Positions 702 to 61,903 of a DNA stretch of 64,000 nt are shown here, piece after piece. This DNA comes from Amoebophrya sp. A120. Lineage: Eukaryota; Protista; Dinoflagellata. A model generated the notes under the pieces. That model saw only the letters and a program-made list of their open reading frames with translations. It made no database searches and was not told the origin of the DNA. The DNA lies in the NCBI GenBank assembly GCA_905178155.1, contig CAJINV010000002.1, forward strand, positions 634,422 to 698,421, given 5' to 3'. The translations under genes and the position numbers were made by a program. How positions within the stretch are numbered: position 1 is the first letter of the stretch; the number at the start of each line of letters is the position of its first letter.

Positions 702-2597
702 TCACTTGGATAAAAAGTGCGACCCAAACATGGTGCCTCCAGCTCGTTTATGAACTGCAAAAGTATCGTACTAGTATAAACTGCATTACAGATTCCACCA
801 GCATTACAAATTGAATTTGTAATGGTGATTTACCTTGAGACAGAGATTTGTAATGCAGAAATGCAGTTACTACGAGTACGATACTTTTGCACAGGATATC
901 GTTCTCGAATCGCATTCCGGACCGCATAGTACCGCAGGGTTCCGTACGCCGCAGAAAAAACACCGAGCAGAACAAACATAATGGCGCACAAGTTGTCAAC
1001 GTGGGACTCCGTGACCAGATTCAGTTTGTCCATCGCGAACCCCAGGGTGACCAGGCCCGCCGCTGTGCGGATCCAGGCCAGAAACGTGCGCTCATTCGCC
1101 AAGTCGGTGCGGAGGAGCGCGAACCTTGTGGTTTCAGACATGTCTGTATCAAATGTAAAAGTGTCTGGGTCTGGAAGGATGTAACCTGTGGTGCGCATTT
1201 CGGAACTCACAAAAATCTCTCATGCAGAGGTAGCAAGAGCTGCTCACTTTCTGTCACCAAATTGGGGGATTTGTCATCCGGGTTCGACATTGCGGAAGCT
1301 TCTCGAAACCTGTGATGCTGGAGCTTCCATACCAGACCTTCTGTGTCATGCAGAAATAGCATGACTCTTCCAGACCCAGACATTTTTACATTCGATAGTC
1401 TGTCGCATAATTTCCGGTCCTCGACGCATCCTCGACACGGTTGGCGGCCCTCGTAGTTGTCTCTTCTTGTTGTTTGCTGGAACAAGTGTTCAGTGTCCTG
1501 GTAGTTGTGCTGGAGGAGTTGTTTGCATGATCTGATGCAGCTGATACGACGAGGACCCTATTTATTTTATATGGGTGTGTCAGGATCGAAATTCTCAAAG
1601 TTGAAAAAAAAATCCGGGGGCCCCTGAAGAGGTGCCGGGATTTTGCGTTTCAACTCTGACACATTCGCCCCCCCTCCGAGCTAGCCACCACGCTATGCTG
1701 GAATGTGTCAGAGTTGAAGGGGGTCCCGGAGGGGGTGCCCTGAAGGCCCCCGCCAAGTTCTGCCAGAATTTTTTTTCAACTTTGACGATTTCAATCCTGA
1801 CACTGCCATATTTTACTGCCATTCGTTACAGCTGCACTCCCCGCAGGATGATCAGGTCCCGTCTTCACAGAAGCCGCTGAAGCAGTAGTTGTCCTGACAT
1901 CTTCCACGTTCGACGATATCACCGGCGGAGGAGCTGACGGCGAAGCGGTTTCGTGCTTTATTTGATGCGCAGGACGAGCAGCCGTGTCGTCTGCTACAAC
2001 TCCGTGGTAGTCTCTGAGCGATCCCGCAGCGCTGGAAATCATAAACGACGTTGAGGTTCTGCAGGACCCCGCAAGCTTCACAACTTGTTCTTCCGTGCAG
2101 TCAAAGTCCTTGGTACAAGAACTCCTGCTCGTGGTTGCACAGTGGAGATCTTCTCGTGCGAGCAAATCCCCATCATCGAGAAGCGACGAGCCGTGTTGAG
2201 CCAGCAGGTGGTCCGCCCCTCCTGCGTCTAGAGCATCGCCCTGCATCAAATTCGGGTCAGATGATGAACTGGTGGTGGTTGTCAGCGTTATGTTCGACGG
2301 GAAACTGAAATTGTGCAGCTGCCCATGCCCATTCTGGTCTACTCGATTGATCAGCGGTGTTCTCTTCGTGCTGAGCCGCGACGAAGTCGTGGCGTAGCAG
2401 GGGAGATCTTCGCTGCTGTCTGCTTGTGGCGGAAGCGGAAAATGACCGTGTAGTTGACGACCACATTGTGGGTCCTCCCCGTGCAGCCTGCGCTCGTCCC
2501 TCAACACGTGGGCATCTTCTCGGGACCCGTCGCCAGTGCCGCTACTGTTCATCGCAGATGCAGTTGCCCGCGACGTGGTAGAACGACGCCCGAACAT
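702..2597 (-). CDS. DUF202/YidH-type (VTC1-like) membrane protein with a long low-complexity N-terminus; 4 exons, 3 introner introns
   Basis: Motif RTDLANERTFLAWIRT followed by hydrophobic helices. Removing 1570-1810, 1147-1397 and 749-898, each with one 5-bp repeat, joins the ORFs in frame (NGSK|INRV, NYATD|MSETT, IRER|AGG). ATG at 2597, TGA at 702-704. Confidence 0.8.
749..898. mobile_element. Introner element, family B (150 bp)
   Basis: TATGAACTGCAAAAGTATCGTACT...AGTACGATACTTTTGCACAGGATA; DR TCGTT on both sides. Confidence 0.9.
1147..1397. mobile_element. Introner element, family A (251 bp)
   Basis: TATCAAATGTAAAAGTGTCTGGGTCTGGAAG...CTTCCAGACCCAGACATTTTTACATTCGATA; DR GTCTG; interior closely similar to 54730-54981. 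Confidence 0.9.
1570..1810. mobile_element. Introner element, family C, atypical GC-rich interior
   Basis: TATGGGTGTGTCAGGATCGAAAT...ATTTCAATCCTGACACTGCCATA; DR TTTTA; internal inverted pair TTCAACTCTGACACATTC/GAATGTGTCAGAGTTGAA. Confidence 0.88.
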
Positions 2598-4163
2598 TCT
2601 GTTTTTTTCTGTTCTTCGCTACCAGCAGAACTTGGGCGGCCGGTGCCGAATTGGAATCATGAAGCGCCTACGTTTTATTGCGAACGCGTTACCTCGACGT
2701 AAGTAGGTCTGCGTCTGCTGCAGTCGTCCAGTGTCTTGCACCAGGCAGGTGAAGACGATGAAAAAAATGGCAGAGCGAGGTCGGTGTGACGATGGGATGA
2801 AAAAAAGCGGAATAAATTCTTGTTAAACGCAAAATGTTTTAGTAAACCAATCGGAATCGAAACGCCAGACCGGCGGAAGTTGATCTCGTTCGGTCGTACC
2901 GGCGATCATATTATCCTCGGCGCTGCATGGGACCTCGATCTTCATGGTCTTCCTTTATTTGTATTTCATGATCTTTCATCACAGGAGACGCTTCTTAGGC
3001 CACAGCTCTTCTGTTTGCACCGAGTCAAAAATGCCATTCTTGCTCAGGACAGAAGTTCTCCACCAGAATACAGTAGAACCCGACAGATCGTGTACAGTCC
3101 TCAGACCACCACAGACCCGAACTTTCCGTACTTACGGGGTGCTAGTGGAAAGTTCTTTACTCATGGGAACAAAGCGAAGTGGAAGTTTTCATATAGGGCC
3201 GTTTTTCATCACGAAGGCGAGCCGTCGGTGTTGTCATCGGTGTTTATCTCTACTTCTTCTATGCACCTATTACATTGACATTATTTATTTTCCAGTTTTT
3301 GTAGTGTACAGCCATGCGTTTGCGTCTCTTTATTCTTTTCAATGGATATACAGATGTGCTGCGTCATTTGTACGATGTACATGTTGAATCTTGCACCTAA
3401 CTTTCTGAAAAAAATGCTCGAGCTGCTTAATTTGGTGCAACCTTGGCAACAATTGCTCAACAATGAAATTACAGTGCATTTGGCTGCTTTACTCGACGCT
3501 GTTCGTTTTGATTTTCAACCAGTCTTCGATAGTGGGTGTTTCGCTAGAGAAATACGAACCACAACTACGCCGAGAGTGCTCGCTGATATTACTTCTAGGC
3601 ACGTCGAAGAGGACGACGGTTTTTGGAATAAAAATACTTGCGTGGAGAAAAGATTCTATCAAGAGGGAGCTGTATGGTTATAAAAGAAGATCTTCTTGAT
3701 CTACCAACTAAAAAGCGCGGCCGCTTTTCTATTGTTTACTTCTGCAACGAAAGATGAAAAGTATTGTCTGCTAAACGATAGACTCAACTAGACCTACGTG
3801 CTCTATACAAAACTCCATGTGCTGAGCGACGTCGTGGTGCCTGTTCTTATCGCGTTTCTTCTGTGCGTTTCTTCCGCGGCATTTTATTTTGGCTGTGCTA
3901 GCTTGTCCTGTCGCAGTCGTGCCTTGATATTAACAACTTCTACAACGTAAACGGACTAAACGGTAGTTGAAAAAAAATGTGTACAGAGATGCTGGAGCGC
4001 CGCTGCTTCACAGCTTGTCATCTCTTGCTCGTTGATTATGATTGTAAACTCTAATACGAACATATAAATTTGCTTGCTGTGCGATATAGTACTTTTTCGT
4101 CTTCATCTTCTTGGAAGTTTAATTGTGTGGATGTGGAACAAATTCTGTACTTAAAAAAACATT

Positions 4164-4226
4164 GGTCCTCATCTGCTCGGACCATTACAACTACGGTAGT
4201 TGTAATGGTCCGAGCAGATGAGGACC
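4164..4226. repeat. Perfect palindrome, 31-bp arms with a 1-nt spacer
   Basis: GGTCCTCATCTGCTCGGACCATTACAACTAC-G-GTAGTTGTAATGGTCCGAGCAGATGAGGACC. Confidence 0.95.
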
Positions 4227-41900: not shown

Positions 41901-44159
41901 TCGTTGTAGTCCTCCGCAAAGTCGTGACCATATGAGTTGCAAAAGCATCGCGCTAGTATAAATTGCATTACAAATTAGCCCAGCATGAGAAACAAAATTT
42001 GTCATGCGGATATGCCTCGCTGGAAACGATTTGTATTGCATGAACATGATTGCAATTAGTACGACGAGTACGGTACTTTTGCAGTTCATATACCATCGCC
42101 ATCACCAACATGATCCATCCACTCCTGCACATCGCTCTGCGTATGGATGTGTCAGGTTTGAAATCGTCAAAGTTGAATATAATTTGTCATGCATAAAATG
42201 CGATACAAAAAGTGACTCTATTGCAGAGGACCCACGGGAGGCAGATTATAGTCCTGGTAATCGTCAAAAGTTGGACTGCTAACTAGCATGACAGAAGGCA
42301 GCTCTTTTGCCCTAAACCGCATGACAGACTCGCTTCCAGGACCGGGAAAATTTGCCATGCACCGACTACAAACAGTAGGCCTGACTGGTATCCGTTTTAT
42401 GCATGACAAACTATTTCAACTTTGACGATTTCAAACCTGACACATCCATACTGCTGCGCATTGGCGCATTACAGTGAAAAATGCCCCCACGCCGAAACAA
42501 GTTGCAACAATTTGTGATGCGAAGTTTCCAAATGAAAACTTTTTGTTTTGCATGAATGGACCGATGAATCTTTCTGGTGCAGAGTCTAGTCGTACTATAC
42601 AGCGCCATCGCGTGACGCATGACAAGCGCCGCTCTTGCTGGGATCTTTTGCAATACAGATTTTATTTGCCATAAACGATTGAAAATCATCTGTAAAGATG
42701 CTGATAAATGCAAACCGGCGAGTGTTTCCCTTGGAAAGGTTTGCAATACAAATACTCCCAATTGGTTCTGGGGTCGTTGGAGCATTTTTCGTTGTAATAT
42801 GGCGAGGTCGACTATGGAAGCGTCAGGTTTGAAATCGTCAAAGTTGAAATAATTTGTAATGCATGAAATGCATGACCCGAGGCGCGTGTGTTGCAGAGCA
42901 GGCAAGTGAGGCCGATTGTAAGCCTGGTTGGGGTTACAGCTCGAGCTGCTAAAGTAGCATGAGAAAACCACTCTTCTTTGCCTAAACAGCATGACAAGCT
43001 GGATTTAGGGACCGCCGAAATTTGTCATGCGCCACTTGAAAACTGGGCTCCAACTGGCATCCATTCTATGCATGACAAATTATTTCAACTTTGTCGATTT
43101 CAACTCTGACACATCCATATCGACATCTGGATGCATGTACTCGTTAAGCGCGTATGAATTGCAAAAGTATCGCACTTGTACTAATCGCATTTATGCATTG
43201 CAAATTTCTTTGCCAAGTTAGATCCGCATTACAAATGTCATTTCCCATGTTGCTGAGGAAATTTGTCATGCGTTTTATACTACTTAGTGCGATACCTTTG
43301 TATTGCATAGCGCGTCTTCGAAGGCAACTTTCTGCTCCGCGTCCATGTATGGATTGCAAATACGTCTGCGTCTGCGAGAGAATTGCCAGGTTTGTCATGC
43401 ATATTGCGTACGACGACCCATGATGCCTGTCTGTCACGCATGATGACCTAGCATCACAGATTTATTTTAGAGGGTATTTCAGCTGCTGCTTATTCCGCAT
43501 GACCAATTCCCTCTCCGCGCGGCACAAACTGGATCTCTCGGATCTCTCTTGCTGGTCATGCAATACAGATTTTTTTACAATCGAGAGACAGCATGACAAG
43601 TTCCAACATTCTTTCCAGACCCAGATCGATTATATTTGCATGTATCATAGCATGTTGCTCAAGTCGACCTCGTTGTCATTTCCCACAACGTCTCCCCAAG
43701 AGCCTAGATTATCATCATTACCGAAGTCGGGGAGGGTAATGTCGAAATCCTCGAGAGCGCGGCAGAAGAATGTCGGAAGCAGCAGTAGCTGCCCGCGGGA
43801 GGTCGCGGGCATGATCATGATGCGAGCGACGTCTACTACGCAGAAAAAAAGCAGGAAGATGGTGGCAACCGTCGAGACATATCCAAGAAAAAAACTGTGT
43901 TAGTGTAACTCTCTTTGGCTGACAGAATTACAGATGCGCTCCATGACAGAGAAAACCTGATATGCGTGGCTTGTAAGGGACAACACAGATGGAAAGAAGA
44001 CTTGATGGCTGTCTGGCATGACAAGTGTAACAGTTTTGCGTCTTCTGCATCACAGATTTACACTCACATAGTTTTTTTCTTGGATAAGACAGCTTGCACT
44101 ACTAGTGGCGTTTCATCCTCCACCCGTGGACGACCCTTTTTCCGCCGCCGTTTTCTCAT
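8925..44159 (-). CDS. Multi-EF-hand calcium-binding protein with an N-terminal hydrophobic segment; about 30 short exons; one intron contains the 25.7-kb transposon
   Basis: ATG 44159 gives MRKRRRKK...VSTVATIFLLFFCVVDV. Spliced EF-hand loops DTDGD|GKLSLDE (40450|14477) and DEDGDGK|IGERE (13778|13490), plus repeats GHVSEKEWVEKGGDPDVF and DLDNRLSYEE. The 3' exons and stop near 8925 are approximate. Confidence 0.7.
9489..13777. mobile_element. Introner cluster in the 3' part of the EF-hand gene
   Basis: A: 9489-9758, 10408-10730 (DR CGGTG), 11321-11590 (GTTCC), 11905-12477 with nested 12201-12452 (CGGCA). C: 10041-10356. B: 12550-12717. H: 12757-13041 (ACGTT), 13086-13432 (GAGAT), 13496-13777. 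Confidence 0.8.
14639..14690 (+). repeat. Left TIR of the giant transposon
   Basis: TACTAGTGGATTTTCTCAATAAAGGATTATTTGGCCTAAGTGATTCCTAAGT aligns to the reverse complement of the right end, TAGTAATGGTTTTTCTCGATAAACCTAAGTGTTGGCCTAAGTGAATCCTAAGT. Confidence 0.85.
15931..17064 (-). CDS. Intronless 377-aa cargo protein; possibly a divergent 5-hmdU DNA kinase helical-domain / aGPT-Pplase1-like protein
   Basis: Clean ATG-to-stop ORF. Ordered motifs FFFVEER, SDDPRL, CGVWTASKF, FGGGPRRTLNLCF and YLCEFSR recall that family; matched by eye only. Confidence 0.5.
   Translation of the reverse strand: MAGTGTPRDVLFAPEADHFWPLFFFVEERWCNFLLRLEKDPEAATLSPPAGETIIVPVYRKLGCWETSDDPRLDGDVIRDEVTITGEAVDSWCATKGRAENSDSVAVRRLQLINRTVKSSRTAWQDRVRTTLVCCWEMSVNFISDLEEWFPGTGHISASQFETAAKALMRVPENAGRYWKKDQYWRSKESEKYVAAAETELWSQLDDKAARFKKRGRNGEKVEKNDLVKEAVDCCGVWTASKFILWMQGSYDLDRDPEAERLPGCLRVASKSTLVFGGGPRRTLNLCFRPDYPNVATTATKKKCDLQFFSDNALEFFVRMRTRMTKNPEAAPNCRKVFDVRRGENWTGNDLRDKILYTSYLCEFSRCWKHLTAGLKR
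19456..26213 (-). CDS. Large multi-exon cargo gene (or two adjacent genes) of unknown function, with E/Q-rich and K-rich low-complexity tracts
   Basis: Co-oriented ORFs join in frame across introners 22901-23162 (SGF|YMEQ), 20366-20515 (HW|EEFDN) and 24482-24726, and across GT-AG introns (e.g. ~20586-20885). Candidate ATG 26213 (MAWKF); the 5' exon linkage is not fully resolved. Confidence 0.55.
20366..20515. mobile_element. Introner, family B, inside transposon cargo gene
   Basis: TATGAACTGCAAAAG...CTTTTGCACAGGATA; DR GCCAG/CCCAG. Confidence 0.88.
22901..23162. mobile_element. Introner, family A, inside transposon cargo gene
   Basis: Family A TIR; DR AAGCC. Confidence 0.88.
24482..24726. 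mobile_element. Introner, family A, inside transposon cargo gene
   Basis: Family A TIR; DR ATCAG/GTCAG. Confidence 0.85.
26930..28930. repeat. Low-complexity region of periodic A/T tracts, including a ~425-bp degenerate duplication
   Basis: Repeating TTTTCGCAAG/TTTTGCCA and AAAACGCAAAA tracts; 28093-28290 resembles 28518-28710. Confidence 0.8.
27408..27635. repeat. Central inverted array of the 11-bp terminal motif
   Basis: 6 x CCTAAGTnnnn (27408-27473), a short spacer, then 6 + 5 x ACTTAGGTTTG (27497-27558, 27585-27635). Confidence 0.95.
29358..34348 (-). CDS. hAT-like DDE transposase, ~1,518 aa, with a long C-terminal extension; 2 introner introns
   Basis: Three ORFs fuse in frame after removing 33281-33547 (GTTT|KLDMPL) and 31651-31807 (QKF|KEEMDK). 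Motifs in hAT order: VDGT (~34002), GDGA (~33711), CDEH (CxxH, ~33605), PTHQRW (~32893), PRTQATAE (~32158). The start may extend upstream via a GT-AG intron at 34351-34532. Confidence 0.75.
31651..31807. mobile_element. Introner, family B, inside the transposase gene
   Basis: TATGAAGTGCAAAAG...CTTTTGCACAGGATA; DR TAAAC. Confidence 0.9.
33281..33547. mobile_element. Introner, family A, inside the transposase gene
   Basis: TATCCAGTGCAAAAGCGTCTGGGTCTGGAA...TTCCAGACCCCGAAC...GCAATGCATA; DR CGTCG/CGTTG. Confidence 0.88.
34533..35290 (-). CDS. Basic/Ser-rich coding segment; probably an upstream exon pair of the transposase, or a separate gene
   Basis: The frame is open across introner 34881-35150 (DR CTCAC; AGGE|PPAP). 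No ATG was found in this frame. Confidence 0.35.
37600..37669. repeat. Short direct repeats CGGGTAGGAGCG x4
   Basis: Seen directly in the sequence. Confidence 0.85.
38951..39045. repeat. ~40-bp direct repeat x2
   Basis: GGTCCAAGAAACAACGCACA...TATCCAC.AAAA twice. Confidence 0.8.
40240..40315 (-). repeat. Right TIR and subterminal repeats of the giant transposon
   Basis: 5 x ACTTAGG, then TTTATCGAGAAAAACCATTACTA, then the TSD ACATTTTT. Confidence 0.85.
40495..44086. mobile_element. Introner cluster in the 5' part of the EF-hand gene (11 elements)
   Basis: 40495-40747 (DR GCGTA), 40792-40965, 41014-41268, 41414-41778, 41931-42090, 42142-42450, 42467-42799 (TGGCG), 42813-43119 (TCGAC), 43153-43309 (GCGCG), 43348-43649, 43880-44086 (AGACA). 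Confidence 0.85.
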
Positions 44160-45424
44160 CTTGATTTAGGAGGAGAGACGATGGACCAAGTTCACGAGTT
44201 GAGATGACATCTCAATGAATGTATCATTTTTATCGGCACTGCATAATGGTCTTTGACATTCAGATTCAGCACAAGTGCGAAAGATGAAAAAGATTTGTTT
44301 TTGTTATACTGGTAAGAAGTACAACTTCGGCACCATCTTCACGCTATTGACGCATGCTACACTTCTTTCCCGCGCCACCGACGTCGTAACTCGCACGCAG
44401 AAGTTGTGCCCCGATTTGCAGCAGGCCGCTTGTTGTAATGATACCGTGGAGCTGCTCTCTACTCGTTTGATGGACACGTCGCCACTTTTTGCGTCCCACG
44501 CTCAACGAAAAGTACCAATTGCAGGAGCCCGCTCCTCGCTCATCAAAACCAATTGTAATTCCTATTGCACCACCGGAGCTCTACCTCACAATGAAATGCT
44601 TTCTCAAGTAGAACAGGAGAGCCAAAGCTTCTCTCACCCTTTGCCGTGTGATGGCGACCGCATGGAAATGGAAATGGAAATGGAAAGGGGTCCTGAAGAA
44701 ACGCGTCGCTCGTTGTTTTCCCCGGAGGTGGCTAATAGTTCGACACGATTCAGTTTGTTCGCCAGCCTGGTGGCTGGGTACAAAATTTCTCTTCCCCGTT
44801 ATACGGTAATCGTCGTGGTACCCATACTACAGCCCTGCAATGGATTAATAATTTTATCTACTGAAGATTTTATTTAAGATGGGTTAATACACTGCTGAAG
44901 AAACGTGGTCGCTGGCATCTATACAATCGATTTACTTGCAAGTTCGAGTTGTTATTCTTTGTCTTAGAATACATCAAAATTTCCCAAAGGATAAGGAGGT
45001 ATCCTAGGCAACACAAAATCGAGTTTCTTATGCCTCTCCACTACGATAAATGATAAAGGGCTACTTACTGTGCCTGTCCAAAAATGATTCAACTTTTTCG
45101 CGTCTCTGCTACTTAAAAGGAAAGAAATCAGATCAAAACAACAGTGCTGTATTTTCAAAAAAACTGTAGAAATAGCCCTAATAAAATTGTAATTTGGTCG
45201 TGCTAGAAATGCTTGTGAAGAAACAATTGAAACAATAACACCCGTTGAAATTAACCCAATTAAGTGTAGCGCCAGTAAGCGCTTGAGCTTGACTGCACTC
45301 AAGTGCGCGGCTCCTATCAAGGCATGTGTAGTTGTGCCCGCAAGTATTGGTACTTTTGAAAAAGTTTTACTGGAAAGATACATGTTGGCTTTTTTGACGT
45401 CCCTCCCACACCTCCTTTTTTTTC

Positions 45425-48400
45425 TCACTGACTCTCCCTTACATTCCGCTTATGCACTGCAAATATGTCTCCTGGGTCTGGAAAGTTGTGATGCATGTCA
45501 GTTAACAGAAATCACACTGTAATGCACTGCCAAGCATGACAGACTTTGCCGTGGCTCCGTGTTGCGTATTCCGCATGACAGACAGCGTTTTTGCATGACA
45601 GACTAGAGGACCTCTTGCTGGCCATGCAATACAGAGCTCAGCGTCATGCCAGACTAGCATGACAGATCTCGTACTCTTTCAGACCCAGACATATTTGCAT
45701 TTGATACCGCTTCGCCTTCCCCAGCTCCACCGTCCGGGCCCGCTGGGCGAAGGACAAGTATGGCGCTCTCAACTGTTACACTCTCAGTCAGCTGTTACAC
45801 GGATTTGTGATGCAAGAATGGAAAAAGTGAAAGCGGTGACCTTGCGCGTCTTGCATGACAGATTTGGCACAGATTCCCATCCTCTTTGGCTCTTCGAGAA
45901 TTTGCCATGCAAAGCAGCTTGATCGCGTCGATTTGGATTGTAGTTTCGCATGGCAAATCATGTAACAGCTGAGCGTGTAACACTTGAGAACGCCATAACA
46001 AGGTAGATAGCGTTTCGGTTACGTTGGTCTGGGCCGGACTGCATTGCACGATCATCAACATCTTTGCGTCGCCCCCCAGGCTGTCCTTCAGCATCATCGT
46101 CAGCTTGCTGTTCCGGTACGGGACGTGTATGGTGTTCTCAAACGTTACATTCTCAAGTGTTTACACGATTTGTCATGCAAAATCAACATCAACATCCACA
46201 GGGTGAAGCGACTTCGCATGACAAATTCCCGGAGGTCTGCACAGCATGTAAATCTGTGCGGAATTTGTAATGCTAGAGGTGCATTTTCATTTATTGTCCC
46301 CCTTTGGCTTTTGCTGTTCTTGCATTACAAATTCATGTAACAGTTGAGAATGTAACATTTGAGAACGCCATAACGTGCCCGGACTTGTTTTGCAGCGAAG
46401 AATATGCACTGCAAAAGTATCGCACTCGTATAAATGCATATACAAATTTCATCCTCAGCTGCTTGAGAAATGAAATTTGTAATGCGGATTTACCTTAAGG
46501 AGAAGATTTGTAATGCAAGATAGTTGCAATACGAGTACCAGTACGATACTTTTGCAGGGCATACAGAAATCACGTCCCCCAGTGCGGAAAGCGACTTGTT
46601 GATGTTCTGGGCCTATCAAAACCAAATATGTCCGAGTGTGGAAGGATGAAAAGTTTGTCGTGCACATTTTGCATGACTCCTGATGTCTGTGATGCATGCC
46701 CTAGCATCACAGATTTTGTGAGGGCTTCCTGATGGCTACACCGGATGAGAAATGCCCTCGCGCCAAGGCAAAAACTGGATTGCTTTGCTGTTCATGCAAT
46801 ACAGATTTTTGTAGAATCCAAATGAAGCATCACAAGTTGTATCCTTCCAGACCGAGACGTATTTGCAATGCATAGCGCCTCCTTCAGCGTCTGGCCGGTG
46901 GCGCCGGATTTCCCAACGTTCTCACTCCCGGCCAAATCGATCAGGTGGATTTTGTATGCATTGCAAAGCGTACCGTGTTAGCAGTCATTGGATTACAAAT
47001 TTGCTCAGCATGATGAGAAATGGAATTTCTATCATGCGGATTCAGCTTAGGAAAGAGATTTGTAAATGCATGACTGCAATTAATACTAGTAGGTGTAGGA
47101 TGCTTTTGCAAAGCATATTTTGCCGAAGTACTGCGACCCGGTTTCCAGGGACTCGTTGTCGGCTTTGATGGTAACGATTCGGTTATCCAAGGAAAAAAGT
47201 GCATACGGCTACAGGCGACTTGTAGAGAATTCAGCATCACAAACTTGCCTTGCATGACAGAGAAAACTTGTATATGCAGAGTAGATCATATGGCAATAAA
47301 ACGCACATGAAAAAACGAGGCTCATAAGCATTTTGCGCATGGCAGAGGTTGTTTCTCTTGCGTGTTCTGCAACACAACAAGGTGTAACTGTAACATTTTC
47401 ATCCTGTGATACTGGTGCGACCGAGAAGAGTACTCGTTCATGTCGGTTGTTCCAACCGCCCGGTTTTTGTCGGCGTCGTTCATGAGGCGCGTGACGTCGT
47501 TCATATTTTTGATACTGTACTCCTCCACGTTGGTAAGCTGGATCGCTGTGTCGTGATCAAAGGTTTATTAATTGCAATCAAAGTGCGGAATCAATCGAAA
47601 AACTTCTCATGCAAAAGTGAATTTAAACAAAACTACCGAAATGTAGTAACCTGTCGTGCAAATAAATTTTCTTACATCCATCCTGCTGCAGCTTCACGTC
47701 CACTTTTTTCCCCCCTGCGCCGCCATTTGTTCCGCTGACCAGCAAGTCGCGCAGAGATTCGTTGTAGATCTCCGTGATCATCATTTTATCGTAACGAAAA
47801 ATCCCCCCTCCCCATATTGAAAGCGCATCCTTGTGAAAATTTGTGACGCAGATTTGCGACCACAAATCGGGTCTGTCTTGCAAGAAGGCACACTCAGGCT
47901 GTCCGCCACGTTATGCGCGTGATTTGTAATGCTGTGAGGCTTACAGGGTAGCCGTCTACCATGCTAGGCGCCTACACCAAAAGGCCGCCCCCGCCTAGGC
48001 TCACGATCTGCGTGCATTCCTGTACTGCAAGACAAATCAGATTTGTGTACGCAAATCCAGCATCATAAATTTCCTTTTCGATATGGGGAGGGGGGATTTT
48101 TCCTTTTGATACATTTTCAGTGAGATTCTGTTGCTCATCTTTTTCTCCCCCACGACTTTAAAGAGTTCCGTCAAGACTCGGATGTACAAACCCGGATTAT
48201 CGCTCGGCCCCCGCTATGAAGTGCAAAAGTATCGCACTCGTAGTAATCGCAATGATGCATTTACAAATTTCCATCCCAAGGCCAAGGTAAAACAGCATGA
48301 CAAATTCCACTTTTCATGCTGACCGAATTTGTAATGCGATTTCTACTAGTACGATGCTTTTCTTTGCAATGCATACCCGCATGGTAAACGTCTTCCCCGA

Positions 48401-51400
48401 CCCGGTCTGTCCGTAAGCGAAGATGCACACGTTGTAGCCGTCCAGAACCGAGGTTGCTAACGCCTGCGCGTTATCCTATGCAAAAACGTCCCCACCCCAT
48501 AGTCGTCTTCGTCATGCAAATCTGCATGCTCAAAATGTTTCTCATGCGGAGCGTCATGACAAGCGTTGTCTAGTCGCGATTTGGAATTTGTAATGCTCCA
48601 ATCAGCATAATAGGCTAGCTCTGTGATGCTGCTGAACAAGCAAAACATCACTACACTACGAGGCCAGACTTGTCATGCGCAACAACCAAAACTGGCTGTT
48701 TTTGTCTAGCAAATTTTCCATCTTAACTCTGGGGTGGGAAGGTTTTTGCTCAGGCTATGCTTCCGTGAAGACCTCCTCTTGGATGGAATTCGGGCGGAAC
48801 ACCTTGTCGAATTCGAACCAGCGTTTCCGGGCGTCGTAGGCGTATGAATTGCAAAAGCATCGCACTCGTACTAACTGCAAACATGCATGACAAATCTTGT
48901 TCCTAAGGTTAAAACAGCATTGCAAATTTCATTTCCAATACTGAGGGAATTTGTGATGCTATTTTTACTAGTACGTTTACGTTACTTTTGCAGCGCTTAA
49001 GTCGTTGTAGATCGCGATTTTTGACTCCTCCGAAAACTCGGTCGTTTTGGCGCCGGAGCTATCAAAAGCAAACATTTCTGCGTCTGGAAGTTCAAGTGTG
49101 TGTTGCTGATACCTGCATTACAAATTGGCCGCTTGTACGGCATAACAACATGAGAAGTTGTTTTCCTCAGCTACTTCATCTTCTTGCGGATTCATCATTC
49201 GTATTTGGCATTACAAACTGGCTTCAGCACGACAAAAAAAATGGATTTGAATTTGATTTAACAGCCGTACTAATGCATTGTAGACCTTGTATGCCCTTCA
49301 AATTTCGCATCACAGATCCAGACCCAGAAATATTTGCAATGCATAGGACCGCGGCTCGGAATCCTGCTCGTTGTCGTTCAGAGGGCGAACACGGGCGAAC
49401 ACCTATTTGCCGTTTGACGAAATTTGTATTGCATCAAAGGCATTGTGTTCGTGTGACAGCACGCACAAGCTGCAAGACAACATCCTCTTCTGATGCAATA
49501 TTAGCAATGCACTGGGTAATCCGTATCCGTTTTTGCATGACAAATCCTATACGTCGCAAAGAAATACTCTATACCCGGATATTCCCTTTCAGTTCCAACA
49601 CCAAATTGTGCAGCCTCCTTCTTTCCGCCTGGATATTCTTGAAGGAATCTTGCATGCTCGCAATCTGGTTCCCCATCTGCTTGCAGGAACGAATCAACGT
49701 GACTAAATAGCTATCCTGGAACTGCCTTAACTCCACCGAAACCGCGGATTTGAACTCGGTGAACTGAATCTTCAAGTCGTTTAGCTTCTGGTTCAGTTTC
49801 ACCGTCGCGACTTGTTTGGAAGAGGATTCCTTCTCGATCTTGGACTTGAAAATCTGATTTTGCTCCTTCAACTTCTTATTCTCTTCGGATAGTTGCCGAT
49901 TTGTGACGGTCGTTTCCTCGATTTCTTTCGAGAGTTGCGAATTCTGCTTCTTCAACGTGTCGAGTTTTTTATCCAAACTGTTCTCCCCGCCCTCATACCC
50001 GTCGAGCTTTTTCTTCATGGTCTCAATCTGCGTCGCTTTCTTCTGGATTTCATCTTTCAGCTTACTCATCTGCTCCTCCTGCTTCTCGTTCGTTCTCTTT
50101 GATTTACTATCCTTTTGCTCGAATTCGGACAATTCGGTTTGGAGTTTCTCCGCTTTGGTTTTCAGATTCTGCTCGTTTTGCTCGAACTGCTTGATATTGT
50201 AGTCCTGCTGTTTTAACTTGTCCTGCATCTGAATCACCTGCTGTTCCTATCAGAATGAAAAATGCCCCCACCCCCGAACTGGAAAGCATTTGTATTGCAA
50301 ACCTTTCCAAATGAAACATTCGCCCTCTTGCATGTATCAGCATCACAGGTTTCCAATCGTGAATAGCAAACATTTGTATTGCAAAAGATCCCAGCAAGAG
50401 CGGTGCTTGTCATGCAAGCGATGCGAAACAACACTAGAATCTGCATCAGAAAGATTCATATTCCTTTCATGCATGACAAAAAGGTTTCATTTGGAAACTT
50501 CGCATCACAAATTTTTGCAACTTTGGGGGTGGGGGGCACTTTTCACTCTAATAGTTCCAAGTCACTGCAGCGCTCGGAGAGAAACTTAACCCGTTCGTTT
50601 ATGAATTGCAAAAGTGTCTGGGTCTGGAAGAGTGCAAGTTTCTCATGCTTGTCTGGCATGACTCATAAATCTGTGATGCAGGAGCAGGAAAAGGGCCTGT
50701 GGTCTGTCATGCAGAAACGTAGTTTGCCATGCGGAACACGAAACACAAGAGCAGCTCAAAAATTTGTCATGCTTGGCTGCGTATTGCAGCGCGCCAACCA
50801 GTCACATTTTAGCATTACAGGTTTCCAGACCCAGACATTTTTGCATGTGATATCGTTTCCATCGGTGCCAGAGGTTTGGTCCATCTTCTTCAGCCTGTCG
50901 TTTTCATTCTCCAGTCGTTTCACCTCCAGTTCCAGTTGGGAAAGATTCCGCTGGCTGTCTGCCGCTGACGCAGCTGTTGAAGATGCGCGATTGGGAGACG
51001 GAGACGGAAGGGAGCCGGCGCCTGAGGCAAGTTTCGTTTTTGTCTACTTTCGTGCTGATTTGCAACATAGCGAAGAAAAACAACTCTGTGATGCATAGAA
51101 GCAAAACAGGATCGAGTGGTGCATGTGCAAATGAAATCTTCACAGTAACATAGTACCAGGGCCTCGTGACAGTTGGTCCGCACTCTTAATCCCCGGTAAT
51201 TGCTTGGGCGCGGCTAGCTTGTTCGGCCTGTCGGGGCTTCTCGGCAGGGGTCGGAAACCCGCGGTGCTACTCGGTTTAGTCCGCCAAAACTCCTCCGCAG
51301 ATTTCTGATACTTCGCTCCCATGTCGTTCACGGTCTGCAAAAAGTGCCGGCCGTAGGTGAGCGCGAATGCGTGGTGCGCCTTGTCGGCGATTTTGTACTG

Positions 51401-54400
51401 GGCTTTCTTCACCAAAAACTGCGAATCCGACAAAGTTGGCATGGACTGCCCGCCCGTTCCATAACGGGAAATCAAGTACTGCAAACCCAGAAACCAGATG
51501 TCAATCATGCCACCGTACGTGGCGAGGTCCAGGGTTCTGCCCATAAACAGCAATGAGAAACAGCTGCAGGACTCGTCGCGCGAGGAGGAGGAACTGGAAG
51601 TTCCGCCAGCGGATGCTGATCCCGCGTTGCACCGAAGAAAAGTGGTGGTCACCGGGCCGTAGATTATTCCGATACAATATGAAAGCGCACAACTCGTGCC
51701 CCTCCCGCCCCTTTTTTGTACTAGGGCCCTAACAGCAACAAAAGCAACGGCAGATATGTGGCGAGTTCCGCAAGACTACAAACCTGTACCTGCGCGCAGT
51801 AGATTTTAGTACTTCTGCAGTGTCGTGAGGTAGTAGCTCCAAGATTTGGCATGCAAACAGTGCCTCGAGGCAGGTTGTGGATTTAGTATTTTGCATTACA
51901 AATGACAATGAGGGGTAGAAGGGGGATTTGTGCACTCTCATATGCAGTCCCGCAAGTCGACCTTGCTGTATTCGGTGACGGATTTGGTTTTCCCCCAGCG
52001 TAGTTCATCTCCCGCATCGGAAATCCAGAAAAGCCGTCGGGTTCGCTTGTAATTTGAGTAGTTGTATTTCACCAATTGTTATCCTGTGCAAAAGTATCGT
52101 ACTCGTAGTAATCGCAATCATGCATTGCAAATCTTTATCCCAAGGCAAAATAGCATGACAAATTCCATTTGTTATGCTGAGCTAATTTGTATTGCAATTA
52201 CTACTAGTACGATACTTTTGCAGTTCATAATTGCGCCCCGTTGCGCAGAAGCTCGATCATGTTCTGGATGTTTTTCTGGCTCTCGATGATACAGGACTGG
52301 AAGAGGTCGTACCTGATTTAGGTTTTCATGTGTTTGTATATGCAAACCGCGCATGACAAAACATAGAATAAATGCATGGCTTCGCATTACAAATCTATCC
52401 GATATTCCTACCAGTGCTCCGCATCTTCCTCCGTGTTCGCTACCAGGGTGTATTCCCACGTGTACGGCGCATGCGCCTTGATCTCCAGCTATCGTGAGAA
52501 AAAAGTGTTACAGTTACACACTCTGATGGGAGAAAAGCAAGACAGTCAACCTCTGTCATGCAGGAAATGCTTGCCACCCTCATTTCATACGTGTTTTTCC
52601 TTACAGTCTGCGCATCACAGGTTTTCTTTGCCATGTCGAGCAACTTTGTGATGCAGAAACCCCAACAAATGTGTAACTGTAACACTTTTTTCCTGTGATA
52701 CCAGTACCCCATCGTGCAGCAGATTTACCTCCCCGCTGTGTGCAAGGTGGATTTGCTTCAGGAGCTCCCCCTGGTCATTCCGGTAACTTCTCAAAACCCC
52801 CTTCCTCAAAACGAAGTACTCCTTCCGCCCCGTAGAGTCGTTCAGCAAATAGCCGCGACGCTCCATAGTGAAAAGTGCAGGGCAAATTTCCCGCACATTC
52901 TACAAAATGCATGATAAATTTTGCTAACTTGGAGCGTCAAACATGTCATGCGGACTAAGATTGAAGGCAAGTTTGTTACGCAGAAACAGCATTTGTACGT
53001 GTACGGGAAAATAATTCCTGTGGATACGGTTGATGATGTTCCAGAAGTTTCTTCAAAAAGTTTTTCCTTCTATCAAAAGCTCAAGCTCTCAATCATGAAG
53101 TGCAGCTGCCCGGTGGCGTACAGAAAGTCCGCTTCCTCGCGTTGTTTCTGGAAATGCGGCATCAAAAGGAAAAATCCCCCCTCCCCATATCGAAAACGAA
53201 ATCTGTGATGCTGTATTTGAGTACGCAAATCGACTTGTAATGCTAGAAGGCCAAGAGACGCAGCTGTGGCCTTCGTTGCAGGCAATTTGTCATGCTGTTT
53301 CCCACTTCCAGCTGGCCCCTGTTATGCTGAAGATGCAAGGCTTTCCCACGCCAACCAGCACTACAGTCCGCATCTTTTCCCTTCTAGCATGACAATGCTG
53401 ATTTGTGACCGCAAATCTGCATCACAAATTTCTAGTTTGAATATGGGGTGGGGGGATTTTTCACTTTGATATGCGGCTGCAGCTGTCTCGTCTGAATCAC
53501 GAAATCGTTCGACGAAATAGTATATCCTGTGCAAAAGTATCGTACTCGTACAAATGCAAGTCTTGCATTACAAACATTTTTCTTGAGGTAAATCGGCATT
53601 ACAAATTTCATTCCTCATGCTGAGGAAATTTGTAATGCATTTATACGAGTACGATACTTTTGCAGTTCATATAGTATTCTGACTTCTTGTTCTTACCGCT
53701 GTTCGTGCTGCTGCAAGGCTGATACTGGTTCTCGCTGAAGAAGTCGCAGTGCTCCTCGTGCTGGGGTACACTGATGTTGCCGACGCAGCAGGACCTGGAC
53801 CTCCACGACTTGTGCTGGGGACCCCGATTGGTGCACCAGCACCACTACCCGGAACAAGTGGTCCTTCTACCGAGGAAGTAGTCGCCGCAGAGGTTCCGCC
53901 AGGGTTTGTAGAGGAAACTAGTTTCACCAAGTACGCGACGATAAAAAAAGTCGTGTACGTTGCCGCCGAATGCGCCAAAATCCCCGCTAGCCCGAAAGGG
54001 AAGTAGATCGTCAGGACTAATTTCGCTTGGTGGAAAAAATCGATGAAATTGAGGTAGCTGGCGTGGAGGAGGGATTTGAAATCCTGGACGGCTTGGTAGC
54101 AAAAGTTCCTCACCGCTGATGGGACGGTTTTGAATTTGATGAGAAATTTGTAAACCCGCTTGTACAGTGGGGGAACGACTACAACTACCACTTCTTCTAC
54201 TTTCGTACTCCTCGTCGTGGTTCCACCAAGAGGAATTCCGTTTCTCAGCCACACCTTCTTCCACGGGACGCACTGTTTCACGCTGTCGTAGGTAATCGGT
54301 TTTTTCCCGTAGAAACCAACGTTGTTTTGGTTCAGGTCTACTTCTTCGGCGGAGGAGGTTGTGATGGATGAAGATGAACTGGCGGTCTTTAATATAATTT

Positions 54401-57400
54401 TCGGCTCCGTTTTTACGTACACCCAATCGTAGACTGCTTCTGCTTTCTATGAGAGTGCACAACCCCCCCTCTACCCCCTCATTTGCCATGCCAAATCCCC
54501 AATCCAATCGCTGCTCTGTGGGACTGTTTGCATGACAAATTGCGGAACCGAAAACAGTACTACACTAGGCACGTGAACCTGTCATGCACAGGCTCCATGT
54601 TTGTTTGTGTTTGTACTGCTGTTCAAGTTCATGCAATACAAATGAAAGGGAGGAGGGGTTGTGCACTCTCATACTTCCGAAGAACAGTCGGACTCTGTTT
54701 CGGAATCCGTTTCGCACTCGCTTTCGGTATATGGATTGCAAAAGTGTCTGGGTCTGCAAGAATATAAACTTGCGATGCGCATTTCAGAACACAGAAAGAT
54801 CTCTCATGCATAGGTAGCAAAAGCTGCCCACTTTCTGTCACCAGAGTGGGAGACTTGTCATGCGGATTCGGCATCGCGGAAGCTTCTCGAGACCTGTGAT
54901 GCTAGAGCTTCCATGCCAGACCTTCTGTGTCATGCAAAAACAGCATGACTCTTCCAGACCCAGACATTTTTGCATTTCATACGGTAGTTTCACCCTCGTC
55001 CTCTGAGCTGCAATCCGTTCCCTCTTCTTCCGAAGATCCGGCTTCGCTGTCGCATATCCTGTGCAAACTAAGTATCGCACTCGTATAAATGCAAGTCTTG
55101 CATTACAAATCTTTTTCCTATCGTAAATTCGCATTACAGATTTTATTTCTCATGCCGAGGAGATTTGTAATGCATTTATACGAGTACGATTATACTTTTG
55201 CAATGCATATCACAATCAGAGCCACGATTTCCTGACGAATCGGTTTTGTTTTCTGATTCTGATTCTGTCTCCCAGTCGCTGCCGCTTTCTGACTCCGACT
55301 CGTCTTCTTGCTGATTCCCCACGCCAAACCCGAAAAACCCTCCACCAAACCGGCGCTGCTGAACGACTCCACCTGCTGCTCTCTCGTCGTCGTCGTCCTG
55401 CTCTTCCTCGTCCTCCTCGAGTGTATGAACTGCAAAAGCATCGTACTCGTAGTAATTGCAGTCAGGCATTACAAATCTTTCTTGAGGCAAATCCGCATTA
55501 CATGTTCCATTTCTCATGCTAAACAAATTTGTGATGCAATTTTTTTATACAGTACGATGCTTTTGCAAAGCATAGAGTGGCAATGCGAACAAAAACCCGT
55601 ACCGCAACTCCACTAAAGCCAGAAACGGAACCAAGTACGTCAAATAAGCGCAGAAGAAGAGAAACAGCGTCTCCTGGTACTTGCAAATCACCGAAAAACG
55701 AAACCAGTAGCTTGAGTAGGAACCGTATTCGAGGTAGTTTTTCTGGAACTCGGAGTCTGCTGTTGTTGGAGCAGTAGACGCGGTGCTGTGCGTGCTTGCT
55801 CTCTTCGCTGTTGGGGAAGATGATGGGGCACTGGTCCTGCTCTGGTATGCCAGATGATGTTCCGAGTTTTTTTTGTACTGGCTGCTCGTCCTCGTTGTCC
55901 CTGTAGTTGGAAGGGAACTTACTTTCAGCAGGCTGCCCGGGACAATGCTGAAGTCGTCGCTTCCTTCTTGTTATCCTGTGCAAAAGTATCGTACTCGTAC
56001 TAATTGCGTTTATGCATTACAAATCTTTTTCTTACGGCAAATCCAAATCCGCATTACAAATTTACTTTGTAATGCTAAGCCAATTTGTAATGCAATTTAT
56101 ACTAGTTGTACGATGCATTGCATACTTCTTGATGTTGAAAAACCGACGTGGTCTGCAGTAAAATCCCCAAATCTTTCGGGATCGGTATTGCAGTGAAAAA
56201 TGCCCCCACCCCCAAAATTGCAAAAATTTGTGATGCGAAGTTTCCAAATGAAAACTTTTTGTCATGCATGAAAGGAGTACGAGTCTATCTTTCCGATGCA
56301 GATTCTAGGCGTATATCGCATCGCTTGCACGACAAGCGCCTCTCTTGTTGGGGTCTTTTGTAATACAAATGTTTGCTATCATTCACGATCGGAAACCTGT
56401 GATGCTGATAGATGCAAGAGGGCGAATGTTTCATTTGGAAAGGTTTGCAATACAAATGCTCCCAAGTTCGGGGGTCGTGGGGGCGTTTTTCATTGTAATA
56501 ATCGGGCAGTGCACTTTCACCCACCGGGGGAGCGAGCACCAGGGAAACCAAAAAAACGAACAGAGGAAGGTGAGGAAGGAGGTTTGTTGCTCGTCCTCGC
56601 GATGATGATGTAGGTCTACTTCCGGGTGGTCGTTCTGGTCGTCCTGAAGGTGGTTGTAGTTGTCCGCTGTTGTTGATGCGTCTACTCGCGCGATCGAACG
56701 ACCCGAGTTTTCTTCCAAATTGACCTCACCTTCGGGGGAACTGTCAAAAGAAAATTCCTCCTGCTCGCTACTGCTACTGCTACTCGGTGTCCTGAGCGCC
56801 CACGTACTGATATGCAGTGCAAAAGTAGTATCGTACTCGTATAAATGCATTACAAATTTCCTCAGTATGAGAAATGAAATCTGTAATGCTGATTTACCTT
56901 GACAAAAAGATTTGTAATGCATGGCTGCAATGCGAATGCGATACTTTTGCACAGGATAACTGAAGCCGCTATAATCGTCCAACACGTCGTAGATACAGAG
57001 TCTCTTCGGGAAAAACCTTATGAATTGCAAAAGCTTATCGTACTCGTATAAATGCATTACAAATTTCCTCAGCATGAGAAATAAAATTTGTAATGCTGAT
57101 GCACCTTGAGAAAAAGATCTGGAATGCATGATTGCAATACGACGAGTACGATACTTTTGCACAGAATAAACCTGCCTTCTCGTTGATGTTCCACCTGCTC
57201 CGAAGGAGCTGCTGCTTCCACCACACGACCTGCTGCAGTCGGCAAGAGACCACGTTGGTCCGGAAGATCTTCTTCAACTGCGAAATAGTACCACCACCAG
57301 GACCCCTCTTCAGTGTAATAAATATCCTCCAAGAACTCGATGAGGTCGGTGAAAAGGGTCTTGTCCGCGTTTTTAACAGGCGGCCGTGGTTCGTGGTTCT

Positions 57401-60016: not shown

Positions 60017-60631
60017 TCATGCCAAACACATGGTTGGATACCGCAGAAGCAGGCAGCAATGCCTTATTTTGGTTGATAACTTCTAATCTTGTTGGATTTC
60101 GCTCTGTACAGTGTGATAAAATTTTCAACAAGTCCTCAAAGTTGTCGTGGTCTACTCCTGCGCATTAACAAAATCTTCAAAAGCTGTCGGACTTGCGGCT
60201 CTGTGCAACGTCACAAGAGTGTCTGAAGATCTTCACCCCATAGTCATAGTCCTAGTAAAGCTTCTGGGTCCGTAAACAAGTAGAATCCAAATTCTGTCTC
60301 TGTCTCGTCTGTCTTGATACTAATCTGTCATAATCTGTTAAAACGGTTTGCTAATAAGGTTTTGCTCCTGCCGTGAATAATCTGTGTCATAATCTGTTAA
60401 AACGGTTGTCGGTGTATTGAAATTTGTCAATAAATCTGAGTAGTATTAAAACGGTTGGCTCTGCGAGATATCAAACTAGTCCGATAAAGTTACGATCACA
60501 ATGAAGTGAAAGCTTAGCTGGCTCTGATCGGCAAACTTTCGATTACACAAAACGAGTAACTCTTCTACCTGTGCTCTCAAACGGTTCGCTGTTCTGTAAA
60601 GTTTGTTGAAAACTTCCTTTACTTCATCCCC

Positions 60632-61903
60632 TTACGCCATCTGCCGGATGACTGCCAGCCCGAGTTCTCGCAACTCTGCTTCCCACGTGCGCGCCTTATG
60701 CATTGCAAAAGCATCGTGCTAGTATGAATTGCATCACAAACTTCCTCAGCATTAGCAATGGAATGTGTCATGCTGTTTCACCCTAGAAGGAAGAAGATTT
60801 GTCATGCATATTTGCAATTAGAGCGAGTGCGATTCTTTTGCAGTTGATACGCCTCGTTCTCGTAGAGAAGCTTCATTCGGTTTCGTCGGCGCTTCGGGTA
60901 TGGTGGGGGAAAGGACTTGTTGAGTTTGTCATGCAACATAGGATGAAAGCATACCCATGCGATAGTTTCTCATGCACAAAATGCATACACAAAAAACATT
61001 CCCCATAGAGATCTATGCATGACAAAGTGAAGAACTACAAACGCAACAGCAAAGTTCTTTCCCCCACCATATTTTCAACTCGATGTTGGCCTGTTCCAGC
61101 TCCTCGTTGATGGCCCTGATATTGTTTTTTTTTTCGGTAAGGATCGATTTGTCATGCGTTTCTTTGCATGACAAAGTCTGAGATGTAATGCACGTTTCTG
61201 CATGACAAATTCAAAAAACTCTAGTACTCCGTTTCCCTCTTCTGGTTGTCTTCGAAGTCGAACTTCACCTTCTGTTCAAACCACCAAATTGTGCATTGCA
61301 AAAGCCGCATCGCACTCTTTCTCGTACAACTTCTAATTGCGATCTTGCATGACAGATATTTTTTCTCTAGCTGGATCAGCAATGCAAATTCCTTTCTACT
61401 TTCTCAGAATTTGCAATGCAATTTCCTCTACAAGTAGTGCGAACCGTCTTTTTGCAATGCATAGCAGTCTCCCCGGCGATCTTGACCATTTTCGAGCAAT
61501 ACTCGCTGGCCTCCGCATATTTATCAAATGGAAAAATCCCATATCGAAAAGAAAGCCACAGAAAGTCTGCAATGCTGATTGGTGACCACAAATCGTCTCT
61601 GTCTTGCAAGAAGGCAAGTCCACAGGTTGCGCCGCATTACGCAGGCGGTTTGTGATGCTGTTGGGCCGACAGCGTGGAAATTTGTCATGCTAGACGCCCT
61701 TGTCAAAACCTTGCTTCCCAGGGTTGGCATAAGCGTGCAGTCCTCTACTGCAAGACGAATCTGATTTGTGTACGCAAATCCAGCATTACAAACTTCCTTT
61801 TCGATATGGGGAGGGCGAGGGGGGATTTCTGCTTTTGATAATATTTCGTGTTTTCCTTCACCCGCCTCTGGATCACGAAATCAGGTGGGAGTTTCATCGC
61901 CAT
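60632..61903 (-). CDS. Small coiled-coil protein resembling CFAP141/C1orf189 ciliary microtubule inner proteins
   Basis: MAMKLPPDFVIQRRVKENTKY...INEELEQANIELK...RRRNRMKLLYENEARTWEAELRELGLAVIRQMA*; introners 61522-61840 (DR ATATT), 60697-60849 (CGCCT), 60899-61071. The family match is by eye and some junctions are unresolved. Confidence 0.5.

Follow-up and report, generated by a model that had tools for sequence, protein, structure and literature searches.

Introners of Amoebophrya sp. A120 (Farhat et al. 2021, PMC7789003; Gozashti et al. 2025, PMC12130899) are described, in the available parts of the two papers, as non-canonical introns that bear TIRs of the form TAT-seven bases-AAA and short direct repeats, fall into many families, and occur in a setting of co-oriented genes, and their supplements list TIR-element lengths of 106, 148, 160, 252-260, 278, 305, and 319. 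The same parts of PMC7789003 pose both the mode of mobilization and the splicing of non-canonical ends in A120 as questions. Among transposons, Hermes, Ac, and Tol2 depend on short repeats of mixed orientation in the subterminal region beyond the TIR, and such hAT repeats are asymmetric between the two ends, adjoin AT-rich bases, and are bound by the transposase, according to the available text of PMC10368747.

The window, i.e., the whole 64,000-nt stretch of A120 DNA analyzed here, contains elements that share TIR ends, direct repeats, many families, and co-oriented genes with the introners as portrayed in those parts of the literature, and the family lengths found in this study (~110, 150, 161, 250-263, 280, 305, and 322 nt) match the lengths given in the supplements. 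The motif reported here belongs to TIR introners matching those published for A120. New are the presence of its sites in all 14 multi-copy families, the 31-33-nt spacing of same-strand sites, and their 36-60-nt distance from the element ends; in the A120 introner literature searched (PMC7789003 and PMC12130899, as far as available), the ends only are described, with no mention of a shared internal motif, a spacing rule, or a position rule. Like the hAT subterminal repeats outlined in the available text, the introner sites are several, short, located inside the TIRs, mixed in orientation, asymmetric between ends, and flanked by AT-rich bases; unlike them, the motif measures 9-13 nt, is common to families with different TIRs, recurs at 31-33 nt, and resides in elements that are spliced as introns. 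The introners also differ from the hAT superfamily in their target duplication, which is 5 nt compared with 8 nt in hAT elements. The subterminal TnpA sites of En/Spm and the inner and outer direct repeats of Sleeping Beauty also provide several transposase sites per end, some of them back to back, but the ends and target duplications of these elements differ from those of the introners, and the likeness is a resemblance only.

The spaced motif and the elements that carry it

The 228 elements collected, which are repeated, non-coding, and mostly 110-350 nt long, form 14 multi-copy groups and 20 singles. They have the ends TAT...ATA and a 5-nt target duplication; of 237 copies found by profile, 155 have a perfect duplication and 52 a duplication with one mismatch. 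All 14 family consensuses begin with TAT at both ends, and most have an A run (AAA near position 11-13); only this TAT-N7-AAA is common, and the TIRs are otherwise very different between families. A derivation of the TIR from the motif was considered and abandoned, since the TIR scores as a motif variant in only 2 of the 14 consensuses, and two TIR calls (14157 and 17715) were dropped as AT-rich and false.

The strict motif, GCAT[TGC]ACA[AG], occurs 203 times in the window (783..61792, both strands) compared with 3.5 times in dinucleotide shuffles (maximum 7 in 30 shuffles). TIR elements hold 188 of these copies, GT-AG introns hold 8, and the other 7 lie elsewhere; at least one strict copy is found in 67 of the 76 TIR elements in the window, and none in the other 9. 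In a second assembly, 497 matches were located inside elements vs 22 outside, which corresponds to 11.2 vs 0.2 per kb. Each of the 14 multi-copy consensuses contains 2-7 conserved sites, for which the fuller consensus is H-GCAT(G/T/C)ACA(A/G)(A/G)YYY, with GCAAT, GCATGAGA, and GCATGGCA as tolerated variants.

An earlier, sequence-only reading of the window had assigned this motif to nearly all introns, in both orientations and in otherwise unrelated families, and had considered it scarce in exons. The motif itself is real, but "nearly all introns" is too wide because, of 14 GT-AG introns picked by hand, only 5 hold a strict copy; 12 of the 14 were inferred from the reading frame only, and one was added because it bears the motif. 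The rest was largely confirmed. In the kinesin-like locus (44669-57400), 76 copies occur in 6,796 intron nt against 0 in 5,936 exon nt, and the orientations in the transcript are balanced (38 + and 38 -). The families are mostly unrelated, as what BLAST matches between families consists for the most part of TIRs or motif pairs, although the spacers of 32-nt pairs are slightly alike. The kinesin-like locus has 32 introns, 15 shown by RNA-contig joints (among the joints listed, 15 of 76) and 17 inferred, and 29 of them have at least one strict motif (13 of the 15 RNA-shown among the joints listed and 16 of the 17 inferred). In one contig, built from two runs of one sample that are presumed to be RNA, 13 TIR elements are skipped by non-GT-AG splicing, again among the joints listed (15 of 76).

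In 11 of 14 families (null mean 1.8, maximum 8 in 20,000), a same-strand pair of sites is separated by 31-33 nt, and the window alone, which is free of search bias, gives this spacing in 9 of 14 TIR groups. Within families, 55-93% of copies keep the 31-33 intervals to within 1 nt. The outermost site is 36-60 nt from 27 of 28 element ends, facing out in 17 cases and in in 11, and the two end sites are non-complementary in five families. Back-to-back sites 7-9 nt apart occur in 6 of 14 families. Convergent spacings of 23-25, 55-57, and 73-75 and a same-strand spacing of 17-20 were lost under multiple-window control, and the result for a divergent spacing of 38-42 was obtained with a window wider than that of its null.

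Table 1. Coordinates of representative introners, GT-AG introns, and the transcribed locus in the window.
Feature	Position	Strand	Description
Family G1 example	40495..40747		~250-260 nt; outward sites 40535/40566 (31 apart) and 40667/40698 (31 apart); more inside
Family G3 example	42142..42450		~307 nt; outward sites ~50 nt from both ends; 33-nt pair 42286/42319
Kinesin-like transcribed locus	44669..57280	-	kinesin-motor-like reading frame at its end; label from reading the translation; intron/exon test set
GT-AG intron, strict site absent	47546..47675	-	RNA-shown; two weaker matrix sites
Family G4 example	48472..48757		~280 nt; strong sites all on one strand; RNA-shown intron 48468-48758
GT-AG intron without TIRs	49403..49574	-	RNA-shown; strict site 49535 and further matrix sites
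Family G10 example	50248..50553		~305 nt; RNA-shown intron 50243-50553; 31-nt pair 50471/50502
GT-AG intron without TIRs	52313..52411	-	99 nt; inferred; intact pair 33 nt apart (52351, 52384)
Family G6 example	53160..53471		~320 nt; 32-nt pairs by both ends, 53211/53243 and 53387/53419
Family G0 example	53523..53671		~150 nt; 21 copies in window; inward sites: same-strand 53565/53596 (31 nt), facing 53638
GT-AG intron without TIRs	61116..61228	-	inferred; strict sites 61157 -, 61166 +, 61200 +

Conservation of the motif and its possible reading as DNA

The proposal of the sequence-only reading that the motif is a putative site for one common factor agrees with the conserved islands in all 14 consensuses, the 31-33-nt spacing, the non-A fifth base, and the lack of strand bias and covariation. 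On balance, the motif probably represents helically spaced subterminal sites on double-stranded DNA for one putative shared mobilizing protein. This protein would be required by all families for copying and could be a transposase or a cofactor of transposition supplied by the host. A distance of 31-33 nt, taken as three helical turns, would place neighboring protomers on the same face of the helix. The array might thereby recruit several protomers to the region directly inside each TIR and assist the pairing of the two ends, in the manner of hAT subterminal repeats. The dissimilar TIRs would supply the end for cleavage and the pairing stem for splicing, and the motif would act as a common "mobilize me" signal, most sites of which would decay after insertion under little or no selection. 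GT-AG introns bearing the pair would then be old or remodeled introners. Against this reading, no transposase family was detected by Pfam among the 17 ORFs of the window, nor was a binding protein or an autonomous element found, and PMC7789003, in its available parts, records no transposase for A120 and itself disputes general transposase-mediated mobilization. Family 38 of PMC12130899, which has Copia-like homology, is a candidate for a long element with the same ends and motif arrays around an ORF.

The motif is better conserved than its surroundings: positions 1, 2, 3, and 8 differ from the consensus in 3.5-7.4% of non-ascertained copies, compared with 24.6% for the remaining interior, where the 46 copies that contain the search pattern were excluded from conservation and age tests but kept in the consensuses and covariation tests. 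Position 5 varies freely among T, G, and C, while A is avoided (5 vs 190, element interiors). These features bear on a quite unlikely alternative, in which the motif pairs are a ~42-nt module inherited or swapped from one ancestral element and have no present function. Part of the spacing may indeed be inherited, because the spacers of 32-nt pairs show a slight likeness between families (35% compared with 28% when shuffled, with 70% for the best pair), and a few cross-family matches, such as that of G0 with G10, span motif pairs. Most spacers, however, are unalignable, the motif is much better conserved than the spacer within families, which had already weakened the inherited-module reading, and the fifth position is free among three bases yet avoids the fourth.

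Pairing of inverted copies, which would fold RNA or single-stranded DNA into hairpins joining the intron ends, offers another explanation. Hairpins are proposed for A120 elements in the available parts of PMC7789003, and in predicted folds of the consensuses, 12 of 14 families show motif sites paired with one another for one strand or both. The folds of G4 and G9, however, have no site-to-site pairing, and the strong sites of G4 are unable to pair with one another because all are on one strand. At position 5, covariation was found in 0 of 21 opposite-strand site pairs, some of them uninformative, and covarying variable pairs amount to 9 of 23 in the terminal 32 nt but to 1 of 58 among inner pairs. 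Since pairing also leaves unexplained why one fixed sequence occurs in all families and why same-strand sites are spaced, the hairpin explanation seems very unlikely. We regard as equally improbable the possibility that the motif is a two-way signal for branching or snRNA pairing, with a UnAy core on both strands. A site 36-60 nt from almost every end means that either orientation gives UnAy near the 3' splice site. The textbook branch-point core is, however, UAAC, expected on one strand and as a single site near the 3' splice site, and the motif variant that yields UAAC is just the one avoided at position 5; neither strand is favored, and a branch point does not require 2-7 copies with a spacing of 31-33 nt. 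An Rfam search of the window gave no matches.

Loss of the motif with age was observed. In older copies, the loss was +0.049 for motif bases, +0.047 for other conserved columns, and +0.057 for the TIR, and the terminal TAT/ATA decay too. Relative to other conserved columns, the motif in older insertions decays at a rate of 0.83 (0.44-1.43), an interval that excludes complete constraint but would be compatible with partial constraint by the host; of the two age tests, one uses 16 old copies and the other a proxy that includes pre-insertion change, and families with <6 young copies (first test) or <5 copies (ratio test) are omitted. The decay at the neutral rate in old introns that the sequence-only reading had taken to count against its own proposal is, therefore, observed at least partly.

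GT-AG introns and possible marking by a host protein

The GT-AG sites to which that reading had pointed (49535, 52351, and 52384) are correctly placed. Eight TIR-less GT-AG introns with an intact 32-34-nt pair were aligned, four of them not chosen by the search pattern, and a weaker inverted site often lies between the two members. Simple neutral decay would rarely leave such pairs, and their presence counts against the mobilizing protein as the best explanation. A host factor is a candidate because some TIR-less GT-AG introns keep the pair intact: a DNA-binding or chromatin protein might label the stretch as intronic and thus direct its co-transcriptional splicing, so that only marked insertions would be spliced and tolerated. 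This reading, which we consider possible but doubtful, is consistent with a matrix site in all four GT-AG introns of the kinesin-like locus, with the 3.5% difference at motif position 2 compared with 8-14% per position in TSD copies, and with the redundancy of 4-7 sites per element, which could mask selection on single sites. According to the available parts of PMC7789003, no U1 snRNA was detected in A120, which would also suit such marking. A strict site is, however, present in only one of the nine other inferred GT-AG introns, i.e., those outside the kinesin-like gene and 61116-61228, and besides the nine TIR elements with none, splicing removes the RNA-shown TIR intron 46949-47116 even though it lacks a strict site. 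GT-AG introns in 19300-35500 are frame-inferred only because RNA contigs did not span the genes there, which has no bearing on whether these genes are expressed, and raw RNA runs (2026) gave 93 and 3 matching reads, on repeats.

The stronger proposal of the sequence-only reading, that the motif defines introns independently of their ends as a general rule, is not supported, given its absence from most of the inferred GT-AG introns outside the kinesin-like gene and its decay with age. Its suggestion that canonical introns are decayed introners fits some cases. Intron 61116-61228, in which a back-to-back pair is 9 apart and a same-strand pair 34 apart, scored above all 100 motif-preserving shuffles against the profile of family G1, and 52313-52411 is similar, in reverse orientation, to a GT-AG intron found at locus L044; the four GT-AG introns of the kinesin-like locus gave no such sign, with scores that were equaled by between 8 and 85 of their 100 shuffles. 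The most far-reaching view, which seems unlikely, is that a helically spaced DNA code, read by one host protein, marks introns in place of splice sites in a genome apparently without U1; transposons carrying it would become spliceable whichever way round they lie, and during the conversion of introners to GT-AG introns the pair of sites would last longer than the TIRs.

Occurrence in other assemblies and significance

A metagenome scan for the motif pair, covering 9 of 64 parts, gave 123 loci, 50 of which came from one assembly with the same families, and the other 73 metagenome loci and 23 viral loci yielded only two weak profile matches each. No spread to other lineages was seen in these parts and viral loci, and no locus orthologous between the assembly with the same families and the window was found. 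Loci L046 and L110 are satellites.

One spaced motif common to families with dissimilar TIRs would tie these families to one trans-acting factor. The motif array can serve as a well-specified DNA bait in pull-down and as a precise target for mutation, and it also provides a marker by which old introners may be recognized within the GT-AG class. Should the factor be a transposase, the introners would represent a subterminal-repeat system of unusual breadth, and if it is a host protein, a new way to mark introns. ApiAP2 sites in apicomplexans, e.g., TGCATGCA, share TGCATG with the commonest motif variant, while the motif is non-palindromic beyond GCAT, ends in an A-tract, and is intronic; an alveolate host factor of the ApiAP2 kind is, judging from the letters of the motif, a lead.

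Distribution of the motif in introners and GT-AG introns

The window is eukaryotic DNA in which co-oriented minus-strand genes are interrupted by elements of 110-350 nt that start with TAT and finish with ATA, with a 5-nt direct repeat on either side. These mobile introns with terminal inverted repeats (TIRs) agree with those that the available text of PMC7789003 reports as introners of Amoebophrya sp. A120, and their family lengths with the A120 lengths in the accessible part of the PMC12130899 supplement. TIR elements occur in both orientations within one gene and are clustered in some genes. They are skipped in one 6,124-nt contig from runs X3 and X5, presumed to be RNA from one sample, and among the 15 of 76 contig joints listed, 13 cross TIR elements and 2 cross GT-AG introns.

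The strict motif, GCAT[TGC]ACA[AG], is present in 203 copies, compared with 3.5 in shuffles: 188 in the 76 TIR elements (67 of which carry it), 8 in GT-AG introns and 7 elsewhere. Weight-matrix hits number 6 in ~17 kb of apparent intergenic DNA vs 17-19 per kb in element interiors. At the kinesin locus, 76 matches fall in 6,796 nt of intron and none in 5,936 nt of exon, which bears out the proposed enrichment in introns over exons; 29 of its 32 introns contain the strict motif, 17 of the 32 being inferred with summed lengths that fit the contig save for 8 nt in one stretch. The motif is real and strong and has more structure than the sequence-only reading had recognized, but its scope is narrower than the "nearly all introns" stated there: because most matches lie in TIR elements and only 5 of 14 hand-picked GT-AG introns have a strict site, it is a marker of introners and of a subset of GT-AG introns.

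A scan of 9 of the 64 parts of a metagenome collection for the motif pair gave 123 loci, 50 of them from one assembly (contigs JACKZZ01...) with families that are also those of the window. These loci (151.5 kb) added 157 elements, bringing the total to 14 multi-copy families. Since they were chosen by pattern, the tests of conservation and age excluded pattern-holding copies, and site spacing was checked also in the window alone. The strict site was found in 112 of 122 copies not selected by pattern, and the assembly has 497 matches inside elements and 22 outside. L046:290-720 and L110:1-930 were rejected as introner loci, being unrelated satellites whose unit contains GCATTACAAA and from which introner families are absent.

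Site geometry and the nature of the signal

Every family consensus contains 2-7 sites, each recognizable as a conserved island. Departures from consensus are seen in 3.5-7.4% of copies at motif positions 1, 2, 3 and 8 and in 32% at position 5, where G, T or C is found and A is avoided; the values are 24.6% for the rest of the interior, 12.7% for TIR positions 4-28 and 2.3% for the terminal three bases. A spacing of 31-33 nt between same-strand sites is found in 11 of 14 families against a null of 1.8 (maximum 8 in 20,000), in 12 at a lower cut-off, and in 9 of 14 TIR groups of the window alone. Of the 14 families, 6 have back-to-back sites separated by 7-9 nt and 6 have facing sites separated by 41-43 nt (p ~0.03 for each, allowing for any spacing interval). 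The outermost site is centered 36-60 nt from the end at 27 of 28 ends, with 17 facing outward and 11 inward; end sites are non-complementary in five families, and spacer likeness across families is 35% vs 28% in shuffles.

In predicted folds, sites are frequently paired with each other, as might be expected if the inverted copies formed hairpins, but none of 21 opposite-strand site pairs covaries at position 5, and covariation is seen in 1 of 58 variable inner pairs vs 9 of 23 in the terminal 32 nt, so that hairpin formation seems very improbable. The strand split at the kinesin locus is 38/38, and we give scarcely any weight to the idea that the motif is a branch point. The fixed sequence, the free non-A base, the lack of a pairing constraint and the three-turn spacing point to a putative site for a protein on double-stranded DNA.

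Proposed mobilization or host marking, and decay

When age was judged by target-duplication mismatch (16 old vs 85 young copies), the increase in change was 0.049 for the conserved columns of the motif, compared with 0.047 for the remaining conserved columns, 0.057 for TIRs and 0.043 for the termini. With a combined clock (172 copies), the motif core decayed at 0.83 (0.44-1.43) of the rate of other columns. Decay at the neutral rate in old introns, which the sequence-only reading had named as refuting its proposal, is seen at least in part: the motif changes at about the rate of other conserved columns with no strict retention, although some TIR-less introns keep the pair. Because the motif is not strictly kept after insertion, selection at the copying step is favored. 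The most likely reading, to which we incline somewhat, is that a shared, helically spaced array would bind a common protein used in introner mobilization; inheritance without function appears improbable.

That a host factor marks introns via the motif is a less likely alternative, although worth more than passing consideration: eight aligned TIR-less GT-AG-like introns, with predicted boundaries, still hold both sites of a pair unaltered at 32-34 nt, in many cases with a weak inverted site lying between them, and those not selected by pattern are 52313-52411, 61116-61228 and the metagenome loci L033 and L078. The decay ratio argues against such marking. The intron at 61116-61228 resembles family G1 beyond the motifs (0 of 100 shuffles score as high), and that at 52313-52411 resembles an intron of metagenome locus L044 in opposite orientation, the match including the motif. 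The proposal that canonical introns are decayed introners suits these two, but the four kinesin GT-AG introns show no clear likeness to family profiles (8, 10, 19 and 85 of 100 shuffles as high). Motif-bearing TIR-less introns would fit decayed or remodelled introners, and a host role is also possible.

Known systems and other features

According to the accessible part of PMC10368747, Hermes, Ac and Tol2 have subterminal repeats that are short, of mixed orientation, asymmetric and transposase-bound. The motif layout here is similar, but binding, known there, is only putative here. The window elements were not assigned to hAT, their target duplication being 5 nt. Copia integrases produce 5-nt duplications. 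For A120, the available text of PMC7789003 reports that no transposase was found; that of PMC12130899 reports Copia-like ORFs in TIR elements, from which a mobilizer might come. No mention of a shared internal motif was found in the available text and supplement text of PMC7789003 (strings GCAT and "internal" absent from the supplement text) or in the available text of PMC9860276, PMC11282704 and bioRxiv 2020.10.14.339549, nor were the motif strings found in the accessible supplementary files of PMC12130899; an earlier mention in print, for example in figure logos (Figs 3, 4, S19-S25), is possible.

Possible explanations for the in-frame stops in the kinesin locus, which one presumed-RNA contig spans, are that two genes are present, that the spot is a footprint, or that an intron was misplaced.

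Features of the window by position
Position	Feature	Observation
6513-6661	Nested insertion	Within 6504-6957
12201-12452	Nested insertion	Within 11905-12477
14100-19400; 26300-31600; 35200-40300	No accepted TIR element	Long stretches including intergenic DNA and long exons
15931-17076; 19456-24136; 29358-34405	Long reading frames	No Pfam family above curated cut-off
20606-20886	Inferred GT-AG intron	Largely short tandem-like repeats; one strict motif at 20811
22901-23162	Nested insertion	Inside inferred GT-AG intron 22841-23173
26800-28950	GC-rich region	Internal duplication, A and T runs; introners and motif absent
27420-27640; 40240-40295	Short telomere-like arrays	11-nt unit with TTAGG; distant from any visible end
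44669-57400	Kinesin locus	Minus strand
52490-52700	Family G2 (example)	Covariation of the two TIR arms of a copy (6 of 7 variable pairs) exceeds that in other families; either constrained pairing or copying between the arms
53070-53075	Two in-frame stops (TGA TAG, minus strand)	Split ~790-codon upstream frame from kinesin-like frame; resembles introner end; 8 nt of exon sum unexplained between 51671 and 53671
57995-58050; 59000-59055; 59960-60015	Three near-identical copies of 40-50 nt	Upstream of kinesin locus
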